A stretch of DNA of 64,000 nucleotides from Dehalococcoidia bacterium (lineage in GTDB: Bacteria > Chloroflexota > Dehalococcoidia > GIF9 > UBA5629), in assembly GCA_034429855.1 (NCBI GenBank), contig DAOUFT010000073.1:4961-68960 (forward strand). The letters are read 5' to 3'. Both the position numbers and the translations under genes were made by a program. Below, one piece after another: positions 43,464 through 56,813 of the stretch. How positions within the stretch are numbered: position 1 is the first letter of the stretch; each line of letters starts with the position of its first letter. The notes under the pieces are model-generated. The model did not search any database. It saw only the letters and a program-made list of their open reading frames with translations, and was not told where the DNA came from.

Positions 43464-44636
43464 TTATCTGACCGCCGATTCGTAGATTATCGCAGTGATA
43501 TCCACTACTTGTAGTTCGTCTTCCATGTTTTCTGCCTTTATAGCATCGGAGAACATTACCATGCAACCGGGACAAGCCACTGCCAGCTTGGAAGCTCCGG
43601 TCTGTCTGGCTTCACGCAACCTGGCCCGCGCAGGGCTGTCCTTTCCGCCTGCCAGGTAGTCGGTCACAAAATTACCACTGCCGCCGCCGCAGCAAAAGGC
43701 ATCCGCTCGGTTTCTGTCCATCTCAATGAGATCCATGCCGTCGATGCCCTGCAGTGCTTTGCGTGGTGCGTCATATACCTGATTGTGACGACCCAGATAG
43801 CAGGGGTCGTGGTAGGTGATTTTCGCTTTAGTACCCTTCAGCTTGATCCGATTGTCTCTCAGCAGGCTGTCAAGTACATGCGTGTAATGGTAAACTTCGA
43901 ATGGATAGCCCAGTCCCTGGTACTGGTTTTTCATGATATTGTATCCATGCGGGCAGAGTGTAATGACTTTTTTTATATCCAGTTCCTTAAATTTATCGAC
44001 ATTCTTTTTCGCCAGTATATTGAACAGATCGGTTTCTCCCAGGGAATATACCTCGTTTCCACAGCATTCTTCATCCTTTCCCAGTATGCCGAACGATAGG
44101 CCTGCCATTTGCAGCAGGGTCGCCAGGTTCCGGGCCGTTTTCTGTCCATTTTCATCATAGGAGCCCAGACAGCCGACATACAGGAGGAAATCATCTCCTC
44201 TTGCATAGGTTTTAATTCTATTGGCCCAGGCGCCCCTGTCTTCACGCAGGTTTTTTAACGGATTTCCATAGGTATATACTGATTCAAGAAAGCGCTTGAC
44301 CCGGGTGGGAATTTTACCCTGATCTACCATATCGCTCCTGGCGCCGATGATCCATTCAACGATGTCCGGGGCAAACTTCATGGGGCACTGTTGACTGCAG
44401 TTCATGCAGGTGGTACACGTATAGAGAATCTCTGCCAGGTGCTCCGACCAGGGCAGTTCCCCTTTAAGCCATGCGTTAGTCAGCCATAATCTGCCGCCAG
44501 TTGAATAGGTATCGAATTTAAATCTGTTGTAGGATGGGCAATTAATGGCTGAATAGTCCGTGGGAAATTTGCAGTAACCGCACCTGAAGCATCTGTGTAT
44601 CTGAGACTGGTATTTCTTCATCGGGCCACCTCCCAA
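43464..44636 (-). CDS. GlcF/HdrD-like (Fe-S)-binding subunit with CCG domains
   Basis: CFRCGYCKF ... CPSY and CTTCMNCSQQCP, two CCG-type Cys-rich domains (CCGNE ... CCGGGSG). It overlaps the upstream GlcD-like gene by 19 nt. Confidence 0.75.
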   Translation of the reverse strand: MGGGPMKKYQSQIHRCFRCGYCKFPTDYSAINCPSYNRFKFDTYSTGGRLWLTNAWLKGELPWSEHLAEILYTCTTCMNCSQQCPMKFAPDIVEWIIGARSDMVDQGKIPTRVKRFLESVYTYGNPLKNLREDRGAWANRIKTYARGDDFLLYVGCLGSYDENGQKTARNLATLLQMAGLSFGILGKDEECCGNEVYSLGETDLFNILAKKNVDKFKELDIKKVITLCPHGYNIMKNQYQGLGYPFEVYHYTHVLDSLLRDNRIKLKGTKAKITYHDPCYLGRHNQVYDAPRKALQGIDGMDLIEMDRNRADAFCCGGGSGNFVTDYLAGGKDSPARARLREARQTGASKLAVACPGCMVMFSDAIKAENMEDELQVVDITAIIYESAVR

Positions 44637-46003
44637 TTGCCGGGATTCATGATTCCGTTGGGATCGAGCAGTTTCTTGATCCGCATCATCAGATTGAGTG
44701 TCTCCGGGTCCATTCTGGCCATAATTAGCTGCTGTTCATCGATGTTGGGTTTCCACATCACTCCGCCATTTTCAAGTGCAAAGTCGGCCGCTTCATCCAG
44801 CGCCTGCTTGGCCCTTTTCATCGTATCCGGATCGGCCCGGTTGAATGTATAGGAGAAGGAGAACATCATGCTATGCCCTCCGTCGATCATACGGGCGGCC
44901 GATGAGTAAAAGAGGTCGTATTTATTTGCAAGTTCGGCCAGTTTTTTAACGTATGCCGGGTACTTTTCCAGTGGTGCTATGGGACCGCTGTACTCAAATC
45001 CACCACCTTTGCTCACATCGGCAAACCTGGTCGTGTCTTTGGAAGGCATGGCCAGCATGGGCGCCTTCATGTCGGGGGGCAGGCTGACGAACCCGCCTTC
45101 TCTCCTTTCGAAGTAATCCCATAGCGCACGCCAGGCCATTTTCTTTTTAAATTCAACTTCCTCTTCAGTGTCGCCTGTTATATAGAAAAGAATGTAATAG
45201 TTGCCTCTGAACCTGAGCGGCAGCGGCTGTGCTGTCACGACCAGGTCTTCGATCATTTCTGTTCGACCGAGCTTGCGCATGATCTCCGGCACCAGCTCGG
45301 CCTCATCGGTCAGGAAAAGCATGGCATCGCGAATCTTCTTGCAGGGATAGAGTCTCAGCGCTAACTTGGTGATGATACCGGTGGTGCCAAACCAACCGAA
45401 AAACAGGCTGCTCAGGTCGGGCAGAGGCGGCCCCTTGGAGAACCAGTATGGCGAAACAGCGCATGAGCCGATTTTGCATTTCTCTCCCGTGGGCAGCACT
45501 ACCTCAAGCCCGCAGACCATGTCGGAGTTGAACCCGTGTTGCTGTGTAAGTCGCCCCTGTCCGTGTATTACCGCATTGGCTGTTATAGTTGCTATGGGTG
45601 GAGAGTCGGGAATGCTGTGGCGGAGATGCGGGTAATTCTTTAACAGGTAGCTTTTCAATGCGCCGTGAGTGGTACCTCCTTCCACTATCACATATCCTGC
45701 AGACTCGTTTACCTCCAGTATTTGTCCCATGCGCTTCATATCCAGCAGGATGCCTCCTTTCTGCGGGATGACCAGGCCTGTTAGCGAGAGGCCTCCGCCT
45801 TTGGGAATAACAGGTATCTTCGCTCTGTTAGCCAGCCTGACTATAGCCTGCACCTCATCCACCGTCGAAGGCATGACGACAAAATCCGGCTCATGCGGGG
45901 GCATCAGGCCTGGATCTCGCCCGTATATGTACAGCTCCTCTCTGTTGTTGGATACGTAATCCTTATCGGTTATTTGGCTCAGCTCTTGATATACATCTAT
46001 CAT
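44618..46003 (-). CDS. FAD-binding oxidoreductase (GlcD / D-lactate dehydrogenase family)
   Basis: FAD-binding PCMH domain VVMPSTVDEVQAIVRLANRAKIPVIPKGGGLSLTG. Length is 461 aa. Confidence 0.8.
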   Translation of the reverse strand: MIDVYQELSQITDKDYVSNNREELYIYGRDPGLMPPHEPDFVVMPSTVDEVQAIVRLANRAKIPVIPKGGGLSLTGLVIPQKGGILLDMKRMGQILEVNESAGYVIVEGGTTHGALKSYLLKNYPHLRHSIPDSPPIATITANAVIHGQGRLTQQHGFNSDMVCGLEVVLPTGEKCKIGSCAVSPYWFSKGPPLPDLSSLFFGWFGTTGIITKLALRLYPCKKIRDAMLFLTDEAELVPEIMRKLGRTEMIEDLVVTAQPLPLRFRGNYYILFYITGDTEEEVEFKKKMAWRALWDYFERREGGFVSLPPDMKAPMLAMPSKDTTRFADVSKGGGFEYSGPIAPLEKYPAYVKKLAELANKYDLFYSSAARMIDGGHSMMFSFSYTFNRADPDTMKRAKQALDEAADFALENGGVMWKPNIDEQQLIMARMDPETLNLMMRIKKLLDPNGIMNPGNWEVAR

Positions 46004-46008
46004 CTTGC

Positions 46009-47058
46009 CTACACCTCAGCTTCTATTTTCGTCAGACAAAGGCTCTGCGATTCACCGATCGCAAGCCGGCAAAGATCGATAATATGAATGGGCTTCAATC
46101 CAAGTGCGGCCACCTTATGCGCCAGCGAATCCCAGCAGGCCGGGCAGTTGAATACCACGTATTCGGCGCCTGATTTCTGCATATCGTCCAGGTTCCTTTT
46201 CTGAACATCGTCAGCCAGTTCCGGTCCCATCCCCATCCTGAAAATCTCCGCACAGCACAGCGCTTTCTGCCTGTCGTACTCCCTGCTAACCCTTTCTACA
46301 CCTATCATGCCGAAGATGTCATCTATTAAAGGATCAACCTGGGGTATTAACCTTGTGGAGCAATTGCGCTGATATGCAGCTTTCACATTCAATGGCTTCA
46401 ACTCGGATCGAAGTTTATTTAAACGTTCCAACAAGTATTCAAAGTAATGCACCGGCTTAAAAGGCACTTCAATACCGTAGGCAGGCGCAATCGAAGAATA
46501 AGTTGCAAAACATTCATCATGTAGGCACACCAGTTCCTTGATGCCCAGCTTCCTAACATTTTCCAAGACAACAGGCAGCCTTTCTTTGATCAGCGACATC
46601 TTTGCGTAATGCAGGAAAACCGCATTGCAGAAAAATTCCTGGCCGAAAATCACTGAATATTCGATGTCCTCAAATAGCTTGCCGTGAGCGAGAGTGTTGA
46701 ATTGAGGCAGGAGACAGTACGACAGCGCCTTTTCCTGCAGCATACCTACCATGTATTTGCCTACAGGCTGGCACTGATTGACCCACATGGTAATTATCGG
46801 CCTGGGGGCGGGAAGGATGCCTTTTTCTTCCTGCCGTTCCACCAGCATGTAAAATGGATGGTTGCCGGAAGGGCAGTACTCTTCACAGGCATAGCATGTC
46901 GTGCAGGCTTCCAGCACCAATGAATTCTCTCCGTTGATTATTTTCGACCATTGCTGTTTAGCCTCTTTTACATCAAGCTTGATGTACTGGCATTTGGTGA
47001 GGCAAGGGACCGATTTGCACTTCGCGCATTTATCTTTGTCGAATTGAAGCTGAAGCAT
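46009..47058 (-). CDS. HdrD-like (Fe-S)-binding protein with a CCG domain
   Basis: CAKCKSVPCLTKCQ ... CTTCYACEEYCP, then CCAE and CPAC. Confidence 0.7.
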   Translation of the reverse strand: MLQLQFDKDKCAKCKSVPCLTKCQYIKLDVKEAKQQWSKIINGENSLVLEACTTCYACEEYCPSGNHPFYMLVERQEEKGILPAPRPIITMWVNQCQPVGKYMVGMLQEKALSYCLLPQFNTLAHGKLFEDIEYSVIFGQEFFCNAVFLHYAKMSLIKERLPVVLENVRKLGIKELVCLHDECFATYSSIAPAYGIEVPFKPVHYFEYLLERLNKLRSELKPLNVKAAYQRNCSTRLIPQVDPLIDDIFGMIGVERVSREYDRQKALCCAEIFRMGMGPELADDVQKRNLDDMQKSGAEYVVFNCPACWDSLAHKVAALGLKPIHIIDLCRLAIGESQSLCLTKIEAEV

Positions 47059-47128
47059 GGCTCTGCTAACCTCCTGTGCCCTAATTATGTAATTATTTTC
47101 TATCCCGATTATACGCTTTGTTGCCGTG

Positions 47129-48328
47129 CTATATAGTGGGCCTGAAACGTGAGGGAGATAATAGTCTGGGTGTCTGGTGGATCAGCGTACCGCTGAACAT
47201 GGTGAGGGCTCTCTGCCTGATTCGGCGCTGAGGTCTCTCGCCGGTTGCCATCTGCACAAGTTCGAGCAGGTGATAAATCTGCTGGGCTCCCGGGTACAAC
47301 AGTGAACCGGAGCCGAGCATTTGCAGGCATCCGGCGCAATAGACGCAGAGTATATCCGCATTCGTCCGTTTGGCCTCGCCCAATCTTTTCAGCGTGGAAC
47401 GTGTAAGTTCGATGGTGTTATAGCAGCTTTCTATACTGAAGCCGGCTCCGATGCCGCAACATACCATTCTTTCCCGGCTGCGCGGCATTTCGATCACATC
47501 AACCCCTATATGATTGAGTATCCGGCGCGGCAGCTCTAGATAATCAGGCTCCAGAAACTTGGAATAACAGGAATCCTGCACTGTTGCTGTCAAGTTGAGT
47601 TTTCGCTCTACCTTGATCCTGCCGCTCTGCAACTCCTCCCAGAGGTAGCGCACAAGGGGTTTGAATTTAGCATCGAATTTAATGCCCAGGCGCTCGGGCA
47701 TAACCCTGGTGAAGAGGAAGGTGCCTGCTGTGCACATCATAAGGATATTTTTGGCGCCCATATCTTTAAAGCGTGTCTGCATGCGCTTGCCCTGAGCTTC
47801 CGCCAGGTCGAAACAGCCGGTGCGGAAGTAGGTTTCAGCGCAACACCAGGAGAGTCCGCCTCGAATTGGTATGCTGGGCAGCAAGGATGTCTGCGTGAGG
47901 TAGGGGACGGTGCAGACATTGCAGCCGGGATAGATGAATTCCTCGCAGCGTGACGTATCGTCCCAGCTGGCCAATCTGGCCTTCTCGTCTGCAGGCAGGC
48001 GCTGTGTAACATAGCTGCGGAAATTCAGCGGCTCCAACGGCTGAAAATAACGCGCCCGTTCCGGAAGGCCGCGGCTGCGGTAGACCTCCCACCAGTGATG
48101 CACGATGGTCTCGCATGGATTGGCCTGATTCGGACAGTAGAAATCACAGTTGAAACAGCCCGTGCAGGCTTTGGACACATAAGAACTGATCTCGCCCCGG
48201 TTTATTTTTAGCTTTTCCTGTTTGGCAATTTCCAGCGGCAGGTTGAGCTCCGGACAGCGCGACAGGCATTCCCCGCAGAGCATGCAGTTCTCTATATCAT
48301 GAAACTGATATTCGCCCTTAGCTGCCAT
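47129..48328 (-). CDS. HdrD-like (Fe-S)-binding protein with a CCG domain (paralog)
   Basis: CMLCGECLSRCP ... CTGCFNCDFYCP ... CCGIGAG ... CAGC. Confidence 0.7.
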   Translation of the reverse strand: MAAKGEYQFHDIENCMLCGECLSRCPELNLPLEIAKQEKLKINRGEISSYVSKACTGCFNCDFYCPNQANPCETIVHHWWEVYRSRGLPERARYFQPLEPLNFRSYVTQRLPADEKARLASWDDTSRCEEFIYPGCNVCTVPYLTQTSLLPSIPIRGGLSWCCAETYFRTGCFDLAEAQGKRMQTRFKDMGAKNILMMCTAGTFLFTRVMPERLGIKFDAKFKPLVRYLWEELQSGRIKVERKLNLTATVQDSCYSKFLEPDYLELPRRILNHIGVDVIEMPRSRERMVCCGIGAGFSIESCYNTIELTRSTLKRLGEAKRTNADILCVYCAGCLQMLGSGSLLYPGAQQIYHLLELVQMATGERPQRRIRQRALTMFSGTLIHQTPRLLSPSRFRPTI

Positions 48329-49691
48329 TCTTCACGCTCCTTCTTAAATATATGATCGACCTGACGGCAAAATGCAGCATGCCAAGAACCAGCCTGTTAT
48401 TGAAGGCCGCACTTTTATAGAGTCTGTTGAAAAACCTCGTCAGCCGTGTTGATCCCGAGCCGATATCTTCAGGTAATAGCTCGCGGTCAAACAGGTTTAA
48501 ATCTATATGGAATCGGCGGCGGGCAGCGCTGCTGAAGGCCATGCGCAGGATATTGGCTGTTATAATAGCGATGATCTGAAAGGCTCGCTGACGTGTGCGG
48601 TGCAGAGGTTTATTTCCTCTTGCCAGATCAACCAGCTCAAGCAGGTGGTAAAGCTCCAGCTTGCTGCCGTATAGCTCCCTCACAACCGAGAATATGAAAT
48701 AGCAGGCGGAGCAATATGTCACCAGACAATCTGCGCCCGTCTGCTCGGCTTCTTTAAGACGTTTGGATCCATGCTCGATCAGGTCCAGCAGTCTGAATCT
48801 GCCGGCTGCAGCTCCGAACCCGCAGCAAAGCGCGTCCCCACAATTATGCGGCATCTCTACCACGTCGGCTCCGCAGGCTGATGCTATTTCCCGCGCTGCC
48901 TGCCATAAGCTGTCCCCCTCGCTCTTGGAGAAGCAGTTGTCATGTATGGCGACGCGTCGTCGGAAGGGTGTGGTAAGCGTTAGATTGCCTGAATGTAATT
49001 GCTGCAGAAGCCATTGCTCCAGTGTAATGATCTCGGTGTCGAAACCTATAGCGAATTTTTCAGGCAGAATGCGGGTCAGCATGGCGTGTTCTGCCGCCAT
49101 CATGGTCACAACTCGTCGGGGCTTCAATTCACCTAACACTTTTTTAACCCGCAGTCCGGCTTGCTCAACGACATCCAGCAACCCTAGTTGATAGATATGC
49201 CCTCCGCTGCACCAGAGGCGTTCATCCCCGTAGATCGTTAAATCTTTCAGGATAGTGTTTGCAGCCAGATAGGGTGAAAAAGAGCTGAAACAGCCGGTCA
49301 GTAAAATCTCTTTTCCCTGCTTCCCTGCCGTCCTCCGCCAGGTTCCGATCTGTTCTTGCTCATCAGGGGGAAGCAGGGGGTACAACTGGTTCCAGATGGA
49401 AGATGGATCATCCGGTATCACCATGCGTGCGATAGCCGGCAGGCCCAGCCTTGAATAGCGCTCATGCCAGCGCAGCAGTATCAATTCGTAAGGATGGCAG
49501 TCGTTAGGGCAGTAAGAATTACATGAAAAGCAGGTGGTGCAACGGTCGAGTACAACGCTTTCAAGACCGCGGTTGAGCCGATCCTTGGCTGCGCGCGCCG
49601 TCTCCAGTTTGAGATTCAGGACGGGACAAGTGGAAAGGCAGGTGCCGCATAGCTGGCAACAACCTGCATCGATAAAATTTTGATTGACCAC
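48318..49691 (-). CDS. HdrD-like (Fe-S)-binding protein with a CCG domain (paralog with an extra ~60-aa C-terminal tail)
   Basis: CQLCGTCLSTCP ... CTTCFSCNSYCP ... CCGFGAA ... CSAC. The tail overlaps the next gene start by 11 nt. Confidence 0.65.
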   Translation of the reverse strand: MVNQNFIDAGCCQLCGTCLSTCPVLNLKLETARAAKDRLNRGLESVVLDRCTTCFSCNSYCPNDCHPYELILLRWHERYSRLGLPAIARMVIPDDPSSIWNQLYPLLPPDEQEQIGTWRRTAGKQGKEILLTGCFSSFSPYLAANTILKDLTIYGDERLWCSGGHIYQLGLLDVVEQAGLRVKKVLGELKPRRVVTMMAAEHAMLTRILPEKFAIGFDTEIITLEQWLLQQLHSGNLTLTTPFRRRVAIHDNCFSKSEGDSLWQAAREIASACGADVVEMPHNCGDALCCGFGAAAGRFRLLDLIEHGSKRLKEAEQTGADCLVTYCSACYFIFSVVRELYGSKLELYHLLELVDLARGNKPLHRTRQRAFQIIAIITANILRMAFSSAARRRFHIDLNLFDRELLPEDIGSGSTRLTRFFNRLYKSAAFNNRLVLGMLHFAVRSIIYLRRSVKNGS

Positions 49692-49877
49692 CGCGACCTC
49701 AACGAAAATTCTTGTTTGGAGATAATGCCGGTATATTAAATTAATGCATAAATCCTCGTTTCATTTTATCAGTTTAGGGAAAAGACCGTACTGCCGTATG
49801 AATGGGATTAAATAATCGTGTCGTTAAAAAGCCGGCTTTCCAGCGTCAAATACCGTATAATTTATGAGTTGTAGATG

Positions 49878-51482
49878 TTATGCTTCCCAGCGGATGAACT
49901 GCCCTTTTATATCCAACATGGCATTGACTATTAATTCAACCATGCCGCCGTAATGTATGCCATGCTTTTCAGTGAGTTTATAACGTGACAATAGATCGCG
50001 TATCATCCCCTTACAATTGGAACAGGGAGCGCATACGTACTTGTGAACTTCGGGACTCATCACATCGCTGAACGTTGTTAGAATCTGCTTGAGTTTCATA
50101 CGGCCGGCCACCGATGATCTCCAATCGGAGAAGTTATTCGAGTCCATGATGGCGAAACCGCTTCCACCGCCGCAGCAATAGTTATCCACTCCGTGGGGTT
50201 CCATTTCGCGGAAATCAGGGCATATTTTTCTGAGGATGCGGCGTTGCGGCTCGACGATCCCACTCAGACGTACCAGATTGCAGGGATCATGTAACGTTAC
50301 AGGGAAGTTATTTTTAGACCTGTCCAGGTTAATTCTACCCTTTAATACGATATCCTCCAGCAGGGGTATTGCGCTCTCGCGTGGTATATTCAAATCGCCG
50401 GTTAATACGCGGTCCGATACCACCAGCATCGCCTTGTGGGCATGCCCGCATTCTCCGACCATCATGCGCTTAACCTTGAGGTCCCGGGCTGCCTCAGCGT
50501 GGCGAACTGCTATGCGAGCCAGCTGAACGTCATCGTACCAGACACCATAATTGACAGCATCATAGGCTACCAGTTTGCTTGAAAGAGTCCAATCGATGCC
50601 GGCGGCTTCAAATATGATAGCGAAGGCCTCAACATTTTCCGGCCAGGAGATAAACTCGCCGGCATTATGCAGTAATAATATGTCGGCACCCTCTTTATCA
50701 ACTGGTATGCGGATGGGTTTGCCGGTTATCTCCTCAAGCTCTCCCTCCATGAAGTTGATGAAGCTGGCCAGGGCTTTGGGTGATGTGCCCGTGCTCGACC
50801 CGACTTTAAGTTGCTGGACGGTGCCCAGCTGGTGCAGCTCCTTGGGCGCTATGCCCATCTCCTGACTGAAAAGTTTGCGCAGCTCGTGTGTGATCAGGCC
50901 GTTGTCTACACCGATGGGGCACGACTGTGCGCATCGGCGACATAGGGTGCAGCGGTAGGCCAGCTCTGCCAGCCTGGCTACAGTCTGATAATTGAGCTCA
51001 ATATCGCCTCCTGTGAATTTGGAGAGAAGTTTGCCCTCTTTCTTGACGTATTTACGTATGATGCGCCGAAGAATCTCAGATCGGTAAGTGGGACGGTATA
51101 TCTCCTGCCTGCCGCTCTCGGTGTATATGGGGCATGCTTCCGAGCAGTTCTGGCATTTAGCGCAGTTTTCCAGTGAGAGCATCAACGGTTGGAGAAAGGT
51201 CCAGTTGTCCTGCTTCGACAGAAGTTTTCTCAGGCCGGTGATGAATTTTTCGACGAATTCCTCTTCTCCCTGCTTGGTCTGCGGTTTGATCAGCCCGATG
51301 GCTGATACACCATCCAGAGAAGTATCGAATCTGGCCCCCTGCTCGCCGGTCAACTGTTTTATACCCGGTTCATCCACAGGATCATCGAGCGGGGGAGGAA
51401 GATTGCTGAGGTCGGCCTTGTCGATATCAACCATCCGACCTTCAACCTTACTGATGTCTTTGAGGCGAATATTCCTCTTCAT
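49878..51482 (-). CDS. dsrK: DsrK-like (HdrD-type) cytoplasmic catalytic subunit of a membrane-bound heterodisulfide-reductase-like complex
   Basis: CAKCQNCSEACP ... CTLCRRCAQSCP, then a CCG domain (CCGGGSG ... CAPCSNC). It overlaps the dsrM-like gene by 4 nt and is adjacent to dsrC. Confidence 0.7.
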   Translation of the reverse strand: MKRNIRLKDISKVEGRMVDIDKADLSNLPPPLDDPVDEPGIKQLTGEQGARFDTSLDGVSAIGLIKPQTKQGEEEFVEKFITGLRKLLSKQDNWTFLQPLMLSLENCAKCQNCSEACPIYTESGRQEIYRPTYRSEILRRIIRKYVKKEGKLLSKFTGGDIELNYQTVARLAELAYRCTLCRRCAQSCPIGVDNGLITHELRKLFSQEMGIAPKELHQLGTVQQLKVGSSTGTSPKALASFINFMEGELEEITGKPIRIPVDKEGADILLLHNAGEFISWPENVEAFAIIFEAAGIDWTLSSKLVAYDAVNYGVWYDDVQLARIAVRHAEAARDLKVKRMMVGECGHAHKAMLVVSDRVLTGDLNIPRESAIPLLEDIVLKGRINLDRSKNNFPVTLHDPCNLVRLSGIVEPQRRILRKICPDFREMEPHGVDNYCCGGGSGFAIMDSNNFSDWRSSVAGRMKLKQILTTFSDVMSPEVHKYVCAPCSNCKGMIRDLLSRYKLTEKHGIHYGGMVELIVNAMLDIKGQFIRWEA

Positions 51483-52405
51483 TTCTCTGTATTACCGGTG
51501 GCGCCGCTGCTTTTCACCTGCTCGGACCAGCTTTGTCCTGTCTGTATATGCGGTGCAGACCAGCCGGCTGACTGATCAAGCTGTGCCTGCAATTTACGCT
51601 CGAGACCGGTGCCTGGTTTGTTTGGTTCATCGTCCCAGCGTACCTTGTGATAGGTGAAATATTTGGCTACATAGTGCATCATGCGAGTAAACGGCATATA
51701 CGCCAAGAAAAGGCATGAGAGCACTATATTAATTGTCATTATAAGGCCTATTTGTGGAGAGTCGAAAGTGAGCAGGCTTTTAATAAAGCCGCGCGCTATG
51801 TTAAAGGAGGGATCTTCGATAATCCAGAAAAGAAGACCGGTCAGGAAAATGAATAATATGCCTGTGAGATTGAAATAGTCAATGGGCGCAGTGTAATTTC
51901 TCAGGTCTTCATCGTGAGTGCGTTTTATTAGCAGACCAATGGTTCCGAGGACGCCAAGCATAAAGGCGGCAACGCCGGATATGAGAGTAATGTAGTATAT
52001 CAGCTGGCTCCACACATCAGGCGACACCGCGTTAATTGTCAAACCGTTCAATGTAATGATTGAACCCAACAGTAGCATTACTGCCCATACCACCATCAGG
52101 AACAATCCGAGATGGAAGGGATAGACAAAGCTCCAGAATCGGCGGTTGCTGAAGAAATACTCGCGAAAAAACATTATCTCTCGCAGGAACACGGTTGATT
52201 CGCTTATCAAGTTTATTTTACGTGGCCGGTGCCACCAATCTTCCTCTTCCAAGTACGATCCGCCATAGGGCTTGCCCACTTCGTGCGCGACGGGATAAAG
52301 CTCCCAGCGCAGGTGGACGGGCAGCGAGGCGTATTTGTATGCCCTCCAGATGATACCGGTGACGAAAATTATCAGACAGATATATGTGAACAGTAATAGC
52401 CACAT
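51479..52405 (-). CDS. dsrM: DsrM-like NarI-family membrane di-haem cytochrome b subunit
   Basis: N-terminal YKYASLPVHLRWELYPVAHE is NarI/HdrE/DsrM-type, with about 5 TM helices and conserved His residues. Length is 308 aa. Confidence 0.7.
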   Translation of the reverse strand: MWLLLFTYICLIIFVTGIIWRAYKYASLPVHLRWELYPVAHEVGKPYGGSYLEEEDWWHRPRKINLISESTVFLREIMFFREYFFSNRRFWSFVYPFHLGLFLMVVWAVMLLLGSIITLNGLTINAVSPDVWSQLIYYITLISGVAAFMLGVLGTIGLLIKRTHDEDLRNYTAPIDYFNLTGILFIFLTGLLFWIIEDPSFNIARGFIKSLLTFDSPQIGLIMTINIVLSCLFLAYMPFTRMMHYVAKYFTYHKVRWDDEPNKPGTGLERKLQAQLDQSAGWSAPHIQTGQSWSEQVKSSGATGNTEK

Positions 52406-52417
52406 AAAAGATCAGAT

Positions 52418-52735
52418 TTATACGCAGCCGGTTGGTTTAGGCAGGCCGGCTACTTTGCATCCACCCTTGGCCGGTCCTCCGGGGAAAAGCTTGTAAATGG
52501 TCTTCAGATCGAAACCGGTCTGTTTGGTTACCATGCGGATAGGCGGCGCGATGCCGAATTCCAGAAAATAGTTGCGCAGGTAATTCACGATCTTCCAATG
52601 GTCGTCATTCATGGGATAGGCGTCTTCGGTTTTGGCCAGGTCTTCTGCAACTTCTTTATTCCATTTCTCCGGCTCCTGGATGAAACCGTCCTCGTCAACT
52701 TCAATTTGCTGTCCACCGAGTGTTACAATTGGCAT
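52418..52735 (-). CDS. dsrC: DsrC (TusE/DsrC family), dissimilatory sulfite reductase co-substrate protein
   Basis: Length is 105 aa. The C-terminal arm CKVAGLPKPTGCV carries both conserved cysteines, including the penultimate Cys. Confidence 0.9.
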   Translation of the reverse strand: MPIVTLGGQQIEVDEDGFIQEPEKWNKEVAEDLAKTEDAYPMNDDHWKIVNYLRNYFLEFGIAPPIRMVTKQTGFDLKTIYKLFPGGPAKGGCKVAGLPKPTGCV

Positions 52736-52917: not shown

Positions 52918-54336
52918 TCATATTAGTGCTTTGATTGCATTCATTTTATGCGATAAAGAGAGGTTGACAAAATCGCCGGCCCAACCGGGTGCAGCCAGCG
53001 CATGTAAATGCATATAGGTGGCCAGTGTATTGTTGATTGCCAGTCCGTCAGTGCGGCCGTCAATGCCGTGACCGCGTCTGACATCGAATTTGGCATTCGC
53101 CGCTGTGTGACCGGTCAGCCTGGAGTAATGGAATTCGTGCCCTTTTAGTATGGCGCCCGGACGGAAAAAGGGATTGCCCTTTCTGGCTTCCACCACCATG
53201 TAGCCGTGCCCCTGGGGTCTGTCGATTATTTCTACTTCCTCATTAAAGACACCTGCCATGTGGTAGCGTCTATTGCCCTTGACAATGTTTCGGCACAGGT
53301 ACATTAAACCCGCGCACTCGGCATAAATCGGTAGGCTCCGCTGCGCGGCCCGGGCTATATCTCTTCTCAATCGGGCGTTGGCCTCAAGCTCGGCCGCATA
53401 AAGCTCGGGGAAGCCTCCTCCGATATAAAGGCCGTCTACATCCGGGAGACAGTCAGTGAATGAATTTATGAATACAAGATGGGCGCCGTTGTTCCGCAAC
53501 GCTTCCAGATTGTCAGGGTAGTAAAAAGAAAATGCTTTATCGTAAAGGACGCCTATGGTCACATTCGGGCCGATGGACTGTTTAGATACTCCACTGCCCG
53601 CACAGAAATCTAAAGGTTCGTACCCTCTAACCCCACATGTTGCCGCGGTTTTAGCTATGTCATATACGCGTTGGATGTCGATGTTGTTTTCTACTACGAC
53701 GCAGGCCCTCTGGATTATATCTGCTGAATCATCCTGTTCGACGAAAGGCACTATGCCGATATGTCGTTCCTGAAGAGAGAGACGCTTGTCCGAGGGAATG
53801 CAGCCCAGTACTGGTACGCTGCAGTATTTTTCAATGGCTGTGACCAGTTTGCTAATGTGACGCAGTCCTGCCGTGTTATTGAGTATTACACCTTTAATTC
53901 CAGTGCCCGGTTCGAAGTTCATATAACCTGAAACCATAGCGGCTGCGCTGCGTGTCATGCGGGCCGCGTTGATTACTAGTATCACCGGGGTTTTAAGCAG
54001 CCTGGCCAACCAGGCAGAACTTCCGACACCGTCCTCGCTGGGGCTGTCGTATAACCCCATGCTGGCCTCAATGAGCGCAATATCCATGTTATCGCAGCCC
54101 CGCGAGAATGCTTGATTCAGGGCTATTTCACCGAACATAAAAGGGTCAAGGTTGCTGCAGATATTTCCCGCGGCCGCAGCCAGCCATGATGGATCAATAT
54201 AGTCAGGCCCTTTTTTAAAGGGCTTGACCTTTAATCCTCTTTGACGGAGGGCCGCACAAAGCCCCATAGTGACTGTGGTCTTGCCTGAGCGCCCCTGTGG
54301 GGCTGCTATCATTAAAGATGCTACAGCTCTGGACAT
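52918..54336 (-). CDS. dsrN: Cobyrinic acid a,c-diamide synthase homolog; in this context a DsrN-type sirohaem amidase
   Basis: N-terminal P-loop domain AAPQGRSGKTTVTMGL plus a C-terminal glutamine amidotransferase domain. Length is 472 aa. It lies downstream of dsrABD. Confidence 0.75.
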   Translation of the reverse strand: MSRAVASLMIAAPQGRSGKTTVTMGLCAALRQRGLKVKPFKKGPDYIDPSWLAAAAGNICSNLDPFMFGEIALNQAFSRGCDNMDIALIEASMGLYDSPSEDGVGSSAWLARLLKTPVILVINAARMTRSAAAMVSGYMNFEPGTGIKGVILNNTAGLRHISKLVTAIEKYCSVPVLGCIPSDKRLSLQERHIGIVPFVEQDDSADIIQRACVVVENNIDIQRVYDIAKTAATCGVRGYEPLDFCAGSGVSKQSIGPNVTIGVLYDKAFSFYYPDNLEALRNNGAHLVFINSFTDCLPDVDGLYIGGGFPELYAAELEANARLRRDIARAAQRSLPIYAECAGLMYLCRNIVKGNRRYHMAGVFNEEVEIIDRPQGHGYMVVEARKGNPFFRPGAILKGHEFHYSRLTGHTAANAKFDVRRGHGIDGRTDGLAINNTLATYMHLHALAAPGWAGDFVNLSLSHKMNAIKALI

Positions 54337-54345
54337 TCAGTTTGC

Positions 54346-54546
54346 TCAAGCTTTTAATTTGACGTAGGAGGTTTCAAGATACAAGTATTCTATCTTTCCT
54401 TCCTTTGCCAATTCACCGATGGCCTTGTCCACAATAGGCTTGTCCACCTCGATAGCTCTGGCGACATCGCGGTTTTTAGCCTTGCTGGTGGTCGATAAGT
54501 ACTTGAGGATCTTTTCTTTAATCTCTTCGGTCACTCCTTCTGTCAT
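54346..54546 (-). CDS. dsrD: DsrD, small winged-helix protein of dissimilatory sulfite reductase operons
   Basis: Length is 66 aa, Lys-rich and directly downstream of dsrB. EIKEKILKYL ... KIEYLYLETSYVKL fits the winged-helix DsrD pattern. Confidence 0.65.
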   Translation of the reverse strand: MTEGVTEEIKEKILKYLSTTSKAKNRDVARAIEVDKPIVDKAIGELAKEGKIEYLYLETSYVKLKA

Positions 54547-54558
54547 GGCTCAGCCTCC

Positions 54559-55623
54559 TTACCAGCGAAATTGCGTCGTGGTGCGGTAGGTATCTACTGC
54601 GTGAGTGAAATCATCGATATGATGCTCGGTGAATTCTATTCCGGTCAATTTAAAAAAGCTTTCCCAGCCGATACGCTCGATCCATTCACCCAAGCGTTCT
54701 TCCTGCCGGGCATTCTTGGCGTAGACTTCAACGATATTCTTAATGGCATTCACAGCCTCAGGCCAGCGAGGCGGGTTGTTGGGAAGATAGGGGATGGCCA
54801 GGCGTGAGAACATGGGTGCGCTGCGGGCATTGGAAACCTTGCCGCCCACGTATATTGCCACGCCGTCTCCTGTGCTGTCGGCCAGCGGCATGGCCGGGCA
54901 GACTGTGAAGCAGTTGCCGCAGTACATGCATTTTTCATCATTGACCACCAGACCTTTTATATTAGGGTCGGGGCTCTTGCGGATGGCTCCCGTGGGGCAG
55001 GCCGCCATGGTAGTCGGTATCTCGCACATTGCACTCAGCTTGGAGTTGTCCACCTTGGGGGGTTTCGTATGTATGCCCACTATGGCTATGTCCGAACAAT
55101 GAACCGCACCGCACATATTGATGCAGCAGGCCAAAGCCACGCGTACCCTGGCCGGCAGGTTCATACTGGTGAAATAGGGATATAGCTCATCCATGATGGC
55201 TTTAACCAGGCCTGAGGAATCGGTGGCTGCACTGTGGCAGTGAGCCCATCCCTGTGTGTGTACTATATTCGAAATAGATTTACCCGTGCCGCCCACCGGC
55301 AGTCCGAGCTTCTTGACCGCTTCGATTATGGGCTCCACATTCTCTTGCTTGGGAGTCATCAGTTCTATGTTGTACCTGCTTGTGAAGCGTAGATGACCAT
55401 CGCAATATTTATCTGCTACATCGCATATGTCGCGGATAAAATCAACGCTTACCAGCCTTGGAGAACCCGCTCTCACCGTCCACACTTCGTCGCCTGTTTC
55501 GGAAACGTGTTTGAGCACACCTGGCTTCACTATTTCGTGGTACTTCCATTTTCCGTAGTTCTTCTTGATAACCGGGGGGAGCATTTTCCTGAAATCCGGA
55601 GGACCTATATCACTTTTACCCAT
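54559..55623 (-). CDS. dsrB: Dissimilatory sulfite reductase beta subunit
   Basis: SiR ferredoxin-like and sirohaem/[4Fe-4S] binding regions; inserted ferredoxin [21 protein letters not shown]. Length is 354 aa. Confidence 0.9.
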
Positions 55624-55643: not shown

Positions 55644-56813
55644 TTAATCGAAGAATACATAGGGATTGGATCGGGGTTTGTATACCATCTGCGGAGTGGG
55701 TTTAATACCGATTGCCCGCAGAAAAGCTCGCATTCCCAGACGTTCAATTAGTTCCGCTACCCTTTCACGTGTTCGACCGTTCTCATCCCACCATTCCCAT
55801 ATTTTACGTAATAACTCCTTGGTCTCGTCGTAAGGGGGTTCCATCTTCATGAAGGGAACCAATACCCACGACAGGTAAGCACCCTTGATTATAGGGGCCT
55901 TGCCGCCTATCAGAATGGTGGCTCCCCTATCCAGTCCCGGCCTCAGCGCTTTGGGCATTTTGTTGATGCAGTGCATACAGCGCACACAATCTTCAGCCCT
56001 AAGATTGAGCTTCTTCTTTTTCTCGTCCCAGTCCAGCGCTCTGGTCGGACACTTATCTATGACGATGGTTCTAATATCGAATCCGCTCTTTACGTAATTA
56101 CGCACCTCGTCCTGGTCGATTCGCAGCGAGTCACGCCATGTGCCGATGATAGTGAAATCAGCTCTGGCTATAGCAGCAACACCGTCATTGGGACAGCCCG
56201 ATACCTTGATTTTAAATTTATAAGGCCATCTGGGGCGGTGTAATTCATCCTGAAATTCCTGTGTCAGGTTATTGCATATATCCAGTGTATCGATGCAAGA
56301 CCATTCGCACCTGGCCGGTCCAACACAGGCGCTGGGGGTACGCAACGCTGAACCGGAGCCGCCTAGGTCGAACCCGGCCTCCGTCAATTCATCAAAACAC
56401 GGCTGCAGGTTCTGGGTATTGGTTCCCAGAAGAATGATATCCCCCGTGGAACCGTGGAAGTTGGTCAGTCCACTGCCGTGCTTCTCCCAAATATCGCATA
56501 CTTTGCGTAAAGCCTCTGTGGTATAAAACCAGCCGGAGGGCATGTTGATGCGCATGGTATGGAACGCCTCTACATTGGGGAACTGCTCCGGCACATCGGT
56601 ATAGCGCCCGATCACCCCCCCACCGTAGCCCGTTACTCCCACTATGCCACCATGCTTCCAATGAGTTATACGGTCTTTAAACGATAGTTCCAGCACACCC
56701 AGCAGATCACCGGCTGCAGCGTTGTTCTTGGCAGCCCGTTTGATCTCCTTTATATAGCTGGGCCATGGGCCATACTCCAGATTGTTGATTAAGGGTGTGT
56801 CTCTGTCCGCCAT
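55644..56813 (-). CDS. dsrA: Dissimilatory sulfite reductase alpha subunit
   Basis: N-terminal [19 protein letters not shown] ... [20 protein letters not shown]; ferredoxin insert CPTRALDWD ... [21 protein letters not shown]. Confidence 0.9.

Follow-up and report, generated by a model that had tools for sequence, protein, structure and literature searches.

Electron routes to DsrC other than DsrMK(JOP) are an open question of sulfate and sulfite respiration, and CCG-domain subunits of dehydrogenases are standing candidates, having been proposed as DsrC partners in a published hypothesis (PMC6470260). Several related systems have been described. A 2026 cryo-electron microscopy study defined DsrK by its one non-cubane cluster, by a Cys329 that is strictly conserved but not a ligand, together with His331, and by an Asp500 where HdrB has its supernumerary cysteine (bioRxiv 10.64898/2026.08.25.746951). 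HdrB/HdrC and HdrD (PDB 5odc and others) combine a ferredoxin-like 2x[4Fe-4S] part with the CCG fold, in which two complete five-cysteine sites sandwich the heterodisulfide. In EtfD (the Rv0338c homolog; 9ojn) the clusters form a shielded, non-catalytic wire from a flavoprotein to menaquinone and the protein is not a disulfide reductase (PMC13083937). For the D-2-hydroxyacid dehydrogenase LDHD, the residues His398, His405, Glu442 and His443 are all essential for activity (PMC10589216). Here we describe five genes at positions 43464-49691 of a 64,000-nucleotide stretch (the window) of contig DAOUFT010000073.1 from a Dehalococcoidia bacterium, which lie behind dsr genes and encode one flavin adenine dinucleotide (FAD) protein and four iron-sulfur (Fe-S) proteins of the CCG type.

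The best explanation for this locus is that two independent, conserved and biochemically uncharacterised redox modules ended up behind the dsr genes of one Dehalococcoidia genus, to which we assign a probability of roughly two in three. Module A consists of the paralogs H1 and H2, and module B of a third Fe-S protein (H3), the flavoprotein and a GlcF-like Fe-S subunit. Open reading frames and Pfam both agree with the sequence-only reading of this DNA in finding five consecutive genes for one FAD protein and four proteins with 2x[4Fe-4S] motifs and CCG domains. That reading had placed them upstream of dsrMK-dsrC; since everything is on the minus strand, they are transcriptionally downstream of dsrC-dsrM-dsrK. 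The source genome of the window (G000 in our numbering; 2.5 Mb, 93% complete) was compared with relatives, the nearest loci being those of Dehalococcoidia metagenome-assembled genomes, and the distribution of both modules was surveyed in 201 genomes of the same order.

Kinship of the Fe-S proteins was judged by NCBIfam scores and pairwise BLAST, and none of the five proteins reached the cut-off of any NCBIfam model. H1 and H2 align with 231 bits and 34% identity and have a common YHLLELV...RQRA tail. H3 scores only 72 bits against H1 and 62 bits against H2, compared with 72 and 78 bits for the GlcF-like subunit, so that H3 is no nearer to H1 and H2 than the GlcF-like subunit is. Its nearest paralog is H3', a gene on another contig (G000:C123:13966-14943, L018), with 194 bits and 37% identity. 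Three clear tandem paralogs had been claimed from the letters; this stands for H1 and H2 and fails for H3, and what had looked like a tandem triplication is, by these comparisons, two unrelated conserved modules set side by side. We also observed that H3' divergently adjoins the H3-FAD-GlcF trio in several relatives (L040, L046, L047).

The three genes H1, H2 and H3 could also be pieces of one disrupted gene, or decaying pseudogenes, and a frameshift had been named as the check on the original claim. Apart from their adjacency nothing was found in favour of this. Each protein has its own full N-terminal ferredoxin domain with a pair of C-x2-C-x2-C-x3-C-P motifs, its own C-terminal five-cysteine CCG site, and its own start preceded by a Shine-Dalgarno-like sequence. 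Dozens of genomes have orthologs of equal length, with 60-90% identity and free of stops, and these also occur in separate arrangements. With H1H2 and H3 found apart as full-length genes in many genomes, the check came out negative and the fragment reading was rejected, its probability being close to nil.

The trio of module B is very common in subsurface Dehalococcoidia. Orthologs of H3 (at least 58% identity) are present in about 67 of the 201 genomes; dsrA is present in 26, and 55 of the H3-bearing genomes are without a dsrA match. In 19 genomes without dsrA, all 20 H3 loci retrieved retain the gene order H3-FAD-GlcF-like and its tight spacing; the genes on either side are unrelated, and H1H2 and dsr are not nearby. 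Many dsrA-positive relatives are without either module. H1 is present in 28 genomes, 16 of them without a dsrA match. Because both modules are found mostly in genomes without dsrA, we regard their placement beside dsr as a lineage-specific juxtaposition.

H2 adjoins an H1-type gene in all loci examined, which are from Chloroflexota, one other bacterial contig and Asgard archaea. In other Chloroflexota, on a 2.7-Mb bacterial contig and in Asgard genomes, the pair is unaccompanied by H3, the FAD gene or dsr; it was seen in Heimdall and Loki archaea, the gene order in the Heimdall-type genomes being H2-like and then H1-like. A profile search for this family in 1.84 billion cluster representatives gave only 146 at an expectation value (E) of 1e-30 or lower, and the family is therefore small. 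Away from dsr, the neighbours of H1H2 include two acyl-CoA dehydrogenases, an enoyl-CoA hydratase, and an ORP/chromate-transporter/larCEB region. These mixed recurring neighbours point to a general electron-transfer role of the pair and not to a single pathway.

In trees of H1 and of H2, the dsr-linked copies form one clade whose sister is the unlinked copy of G063, and the copies at the ORP-lar position fall into a second clade. No genome holds both types. A faster evolution of H1H2 after joining the dsr string was considered and rejected, as the long stem is on the other, ORP-lar clade in both trees. As an observation in its own right, a pyridoxal phosphate (PLP) enzyme of the D-cysteine desulfhydrase/ACC deaminase family and an amino-acid permease adjoin H1H2 in four dsr-less loci (L080:2213-3328 for the PLP enzyme, also L066, L068 and L070). 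The best model for this enzyme is the D-cysteate sulfo-lyase CuyA, with 198 bits compared with a cut-off of 450, and a link of the pair to sulfur amino acids is conceivable. On a related metagenome contig (L012:6795-10593), an H2-like gene (35%) and an H1-like gene (51%) are followed by an H2 ortholog (70-75% identity) that is split into open reading frames of 290 and 118 amino acids.

Pfam finds Fer4 dicluster motifs and CCG domains in H1, H2, H3 and the GlcF-like subunit, with two CCG stretches in the GlcF-like subunit only. The complete site of H1 consists of C253, C289, C290, C327 and C330, its first CCG region is degenerate and has no conserved cysteine, and it ends in a basic, amphipathic tail of about 90 amino acids. 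The first region is also degenerate in H3, which has one complete site only. H2 has a complete C-terminal site and four invariant cysteines in the first region (C136, C162, C163 and C199), and it probably binds a second cluster there, like HdrB and EtfD. The five cysteines of the complete site (C-Xn-CC-Xm-C-X2-C) are invariant in 30 homologs of H1 and 41 homologs of H2.

Two complete CCG sites, as in HdrD and HdrB proper, are found in none of H1, H2, H3 and the GlcF-like subunit, and unlike in the Hdr systems there is no HdrA or HdrE partner here. HdrB chains are the best sequence matches in the PDB. An AlphaFold2 (AF2) model of H1 had a predicted local distance difference test score (pLDDT) of 88 and a predicted template modelling score of 0.90; a fold search with this model returned M. 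smegmatis EtfD (9ojn) as the best match, HdrB chains at ranks 2-5, 7 and 8, and also LutA. A complex prediction for H1 with H2, with alignments for both, gave a score of 0.00 and weighs neither for nor against their pairing.

The GlcF-like subunit matches the soluble part of M. smegmatis EtfD with an E of 9e-51, and in both, two CCG regions come after two cubane [4Fe-4S] motifs. Its second CCG site is full and its first region has four cysteines and a histidine; it keeps the VGC, the CC, and the cysteine and histidine of the C-P-H-C of EtfD (here C-P-H-G), so that the second cluster, which is non-cubane, retains its ligands together with the extra histidine, and the ligand set is of the EtfD type. 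It differs from EtfD in having CC (HdrB-like) for C-T in the first CCG region and in lacking the cysteine equivalent to Cys584. The NarI-like haem-b membrane domain of EtfD is absent from H1, H2, H3 and the GlcF-like subunit. A transmembrane helix was found in none of these four, no window of 19 residues being above 1.65 on the Kyte-Doolittle scale, and the maxima fall in the CCG core. The partner also differs, being a VAO/PCMH-type flavoprotein here and ETF in the case of EtfD.

The flavoprotein has the domain architecture of a D-2-hydroxyacid dehydrogenase (FAD_binding_4, E 4.6e-28; FAD-oxidase_C, E 4.1e-15), and its gene overlaps that of an Fe-S protein with two CCG stretches, as in E. coli GlcDEF, the DVU3027/3028-type D-lactate dehydrogenases and LDHD. 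Automatic annotation of homologs is 'glycolate oxidase', and the trio is independent of dsr. All this would agree with an independent D-lactate or glycolate (2-hydroxyacid) dehydrogenase operon of the GlcDF, Dld-II or Lut type. In an alignment with E. coli GlcD, however, the positions of H398, H405, E442 and H443 of LDHD are occupied by R, H, K and P, and only the second histidine of the four is retained; in other words, the metal-binding H-x6-H and the catalytic E-H of GlcD read R...H and K-P. The residues R371, H377, W417 and K418 of the flavoprotein are invariant in 27 close homologs. Its score against the GlcD model TIGR00387 is 110 bits compared with a cut-off of 568, and the GlcE and GlcF models gave 37 (cut-off 284) and 43 bits (cut-off 333).

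The composition of the trio also speaks against such an operon. It has one flavin and two Fe-S subunits, while GlcDEF has two flavin subunits and one Fe-S subunit; a second flavin subunit was not found in the operon by open reading frames and Pfam, and the extra subunit H3 has no counterpart in GlcDEF. In the five proteins Pfam reported only Fer4-type, CCG, FAD_binding_4 and FAD-oxidase_C domains and none of the LutB or LutC type, and the LutB model scored 26.5 bits on the GlcF-like subunit compared with a cut-off of 445. Because the His/His/Glu-His catalytic set is missing, lactate or glycolate is unlikely as the substrate. Of the alternative proposal made from the letters, an independent lactate-utilisation-like operon, the independence fits the trio and the lactate type does not. 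On balance we consider a 2-hydroxyacid dehydrogenase operon improbable.

The FAD domain of the flavoprotein matches VAO/PCMH-type oxidoreductases and D-lactate dehydrogenases about equally well. For the substrate-side C-terminal half, with the cap domain, the best match in the PDB is p-cresol methylhydroxylase (1dii, 1wve; E 1.8e-4), followed by glycolate oxidase (0.011) and LDHD (0.046); 4-phenol oxidising flavoproteins of this kind also rank among the top matches of the FAD domain. A Tyr-Arg pair of PCMH, which we take to be the phenolate-binding pair of the 4-phenol oxidising subfamily of VAO/PCMH, is aligned with Trp-Lys of the flavoprotein. The position next to Trp385 of PCMH, presumably that of the covalent Tyr384, is Asp in the flavoprotein. 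The Fe-S partners also differ from the cytochrome c subunit of PCMH. The protein is a member of the VAO/PCMH superfamily with a remodelled active site, and not a standard 2-hydroxyacid dehydrogenase. A cluster look-up returned generic 'FAD-binding oxidoreductase' clusters only, and the AF2 model had a pLDDT of 58, from a shallow alignment, which is too low for a fold search. Related GlcD/VAO-like flavoproteins with CCG partners have been proposed for markedly different chemistry, e.g. in anaerobic benzene degraders (PMC13416013).

With two independent modules the following picture emerges. Module A would consist of translationally coupled, soluble or peripheral HdrD/EtfD-like proteins, each with two cubane-cluster motifs and one complete CCG site for a non-cubane cluster, and might serve as a general electron-transfer or disulfide-reductase hub recruited by different loci. 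Module B would be a three-subunit dehydrogenase. Its substrate, probably not a 2-hydroxyacid, would be oxidised at the FAD, and the electrons would pass into the CCG cluster or clusters of the GlcF-like subunit, as from ETF to EtfD. From there the cubane clusters of the GlcF-like subunit and H3 could conduct them to an acceptor, for example a quinone, ferredoxin or a thiol/disulfide carrier. The data show that the genes are intact and form two modules, how these are distributed and which motifs they contain; we infer how the subunits associate, which way the electrons flow and whether there is a coupling to sulfite respiration.

A different reading is that the five genes are an electron-input module for sulfite respiration. 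Electrons taken from an organic substrate by the flavoprotein would be used at the CCG sites of H1 and H2 (and/or those of H3 and the GlcF-like subunit) for direct reduction of the DsrC trisulfide or disulfide. Such a soluble route would avoid the quinone pool and either substitute for DsrMK or supplement it. All five genes have the same orientation as dsr, and CCG subunits are, as mentioned, already proposed as partners of DsrC. Six genomes of the genus have H1H2 directly behind dsrM'K' or dsrC (dsrM' and dsrK' being the dsrMK pair of this string). The order dsrABDNC-M'K'-H1H2-trio-ORP is found in G000, G033 and G079, and in G097 the same order can be followed up to H2 at the contig end. The trio is missing from dsr-M'K'-H1H2-ORP in G127. 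The 98%-complete genome of G133 contains no dsrM'K' at all; its order is dsrABDN-YHS-C-H1H2-trio, a deletion having joined dsrC to H1.

Other relatives have the trio directly after dsrK' with H1H2 elsewhere (dsrC-M'K'-trio-ORP in G143 and G147), dsr-M'K' followed by unrelated genes (G001 and G057), or dsrABDNC alone with H1H2 elsewhere and no dsrM'K' (G063). In G001 and G057 (98% complete), which are dsrA-positive, no H1 match was found at an E of 1e-80 or lower, and the H3 query returned only the distant paralog H3'. The comparative data thus show the link to dsr as recent, variable and dispensable, which tempers any conclusion that the modules are wired to DsrC. We noted separately that the dsr loci are decaying or remodelled in the close relatives G147, G127, G063 and G133. 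In G147 (L064, G147:C10:86000-104000), dsrA and dsrB are broken into several frames while dsrN, dsrC, dsrM', dsrK', H3 and the FAD gene are intact; in G127 (L056/L001), dsrK' is split into two frames at about residue 198; and in G063 (L074, G063:C2) and G133, dsrM'K' is lost entirely.

The residues that define DsrK (A. fulgidus numbering) were mapped by MAFFT via the canonical DsrK of G000, which reads E-C-G-H in the C-x-H region and C-A-I-D in the C-terminal motif. DsrK' reads E-C-G-H, and C-S-N-C where the canonical protein has C-x-x-D (Asp500). The corresponding motifs are L-C-P-H and C-P-G-C in the GlcF-like subunit, M-C-T-A and C-A-G-C in H2, M-M-A-A-E-H and C-S-A-C in H1, and L-H-D-x-C and C-P-A-C in the H3 family. 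An invariant cysteine of H2 is hence aligned with Cys329, which would favour a role in DsrC reduction. On the other hand, H2 is without the histidine, H1 has neither the cysteine nor the histidine, and all of H1, H2 and H3 have C-x-x-C at the position of the strictly conserved aspartate. The DsrK model NF045796 (cut-off 400) gave 16 bits for H1, 30 for H2, 65 for the GlcF-like subunit, and a score below reporting for H3. H1 and H3 share with DsrK a single complete CCG site, found where HdrB has its proximal cluster, and are encoded next to dsrC and dsrM'K'. They have no DsrM-type partner. Without the signature of Cys329-x-His331 and Asp500, none of H1, H2 and H3 is a DsrK-type enzyme.

There is also no gap in DsrC reduction for them to fill, because canonical DsrMKJOP is present. 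Contig C7 of G000 (L076:6856-11835) encodes DsrM (480 bits, cut-off 300), DsrK (707, cut-off 400), DsrJ (151, cut-off 100), DsrO (291, cut-off 200) and DsrP (439, cut-off 350), all above the NCBIfam equivalog cut-offs; an open reading frame of 181 amino acids follows. All relatives checked have a DsrK-type gene matching this DsrK (about 550 amino acids), and so do G133 and G063 among them, which lack dsrM'K'; in G033 and G133 the gene lies upstream of dsrA at a distance of a few kb. The pair in the string itself scored 327 bits with the DsrK model and 24 bits with the DsrM model (cut-offs 400 and 300) and is a divergent DsrMK of the Gram-positive type, for which D. reducens served as comparison (PMC4759654). 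The dsr-carrying Dehalococcoidia here thus encode canonical DsrMKJOP and a Gram-positive-type DsrMK. The idea that H1H2 replaces DsrMK in G133 and G063 is weakened by the DsrK-type gene of these genomes.

The spacer between dsrK' and H1 is 78% conserved among five genomes and contains an extended -10-like element, TGATAAAAT, at 49771-49763 on the minus strand, about 70 nucleotides upstream of the H1 start. The element is identical in four of the five relatives, and the fifth has TGTTAAAAT; H1H2 and the genes behind the pair may be transcribed from it as an internal promoter, and this speaks against a dedicated connection to dsr. A hairpin after dsrK' (49844-49831) is weak and not conserved in relatives, and a scan for consensus promoters and terminators gave match counts at chance level. 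In G133, the deletion of dsrM'K' and the distal part of the spacer has removed the TGATAAAAT element and left 48 nucleotides between dsrC and H1. With such a short gap and no promoter-like element, read-through from dsrC is likely there. In the genus, both modules are possibly co-transcribed with dsr.

The claim of an expanded electron-input module for DsrC therefore survives to the extent that the genes are part of the dsr string, while a dedicated role is opposed by where the modules occur, by the canonical DsrMKJOP and by the absence of the DsrK signature. We regard this reading as unlikely. A narrower form, which we would put at somewhat lower odds, is that in the subclade H1-H2 was recruited to reduce DsrC, or another persulfide or disulfide carried on a protein, independently of DsrM, with H3-FAD-GlcF as the electron source and the quinone pool bypassed. 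The locus neither proves nor rules against the published hypothesis, and direct wiring is possible but unsupported.

Some results do weigh against two merely juxtaposed modules. The six genomes that keep H1H2 directly behind dsr (dsrM'K' or dsrC) belong to one subclade, and the short dsrC-H1 gap of G133 points in the same direction, so that a functional tie to Dsr may exist in this lineage. The evidence for H1-H2 and H3-FAD-GlcF complexes consists of conserved adjacency and overlapping genes. For quinone biosynthesis in G000, only a MenA-like gene below threshold (G000:C16:1482-2318; 89 bits compared with 102) and no MqnA was found. The same genome encodes the quinone-dependent DsrM and DsrP, and the quinone source may lie in the missing 7% of the genome.

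If H1H2 were a reductase of DsrC, with electrons from H3-FAD-GlcF, it would be the first genetic embodiment of a long-standing idea, that of CCG dehydrogenase subunits feeding DsrC directly. Apart from this, the locus offers two well-defined targets: a rare HdrD-like pair common to Dehalococcoidia, other anaerobes and Asgard archaea, and a flavin/Fe-S dehydrogenase that automatic annotation calls 'glycolate oxidase', with an active site unlike that of the lactate and glycolate enzymes.

Table 1. Genes and intergenic regions of the dsr string and the two modules, in order of transcription; positions are those of the window.
Feature	Position	Strand	Remark
dsrA	55644-56813	minus	first of the string in transcription order
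dsrB	54559-55623	minus	
dsrD	54346-54546	minus	
dsrN	52918-54336	minus	
YHS/TRASH-type Cys-rich mini-ORF (open reading frame), 50 amino acids	52750-52902	minus	between dsrN and dsrC
dsrC	52418-52735	minus	two-Cys arm
dsrM'	51479-52405	minus	NarI-like
dsrK'	49878-51482	minus	
dsrK'-H1 spacer, 186 nucleotides	49692-49877	minus	
H1, HdrD/EtfD-like Fe-S protein, 457 amino acids	48318-49691	minus	Pfam; first gene of the H1-H2 pair
H2, paralog of H1, 399 amino acids	47129-48328	minus	start overlaps the H1 stop by 11 nucleotides
H2-H3 gap, 70 nucleotides		minus	
H3, divergent single-CCG Fe-S protein, 349 amino acids	46009-47058	minus	first gene of the H3-FAD-GlcF-like trio
FAD-binding VAO/PCMH-superfamily flavoprotein ('GlcD-like'), 461 amino acids	44618-46003	minus	PF01565 and PF02913
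GlcF-like Fe-S subunit, 390 amino acids	43464-44636	minus	start overlaps the FAD gene by 19 nucleotides

The string is listed with its flanking dsr genes in Table 1. The YHS mini-ORF is kept at the equivalent place in G133 (L008:9465-9617).

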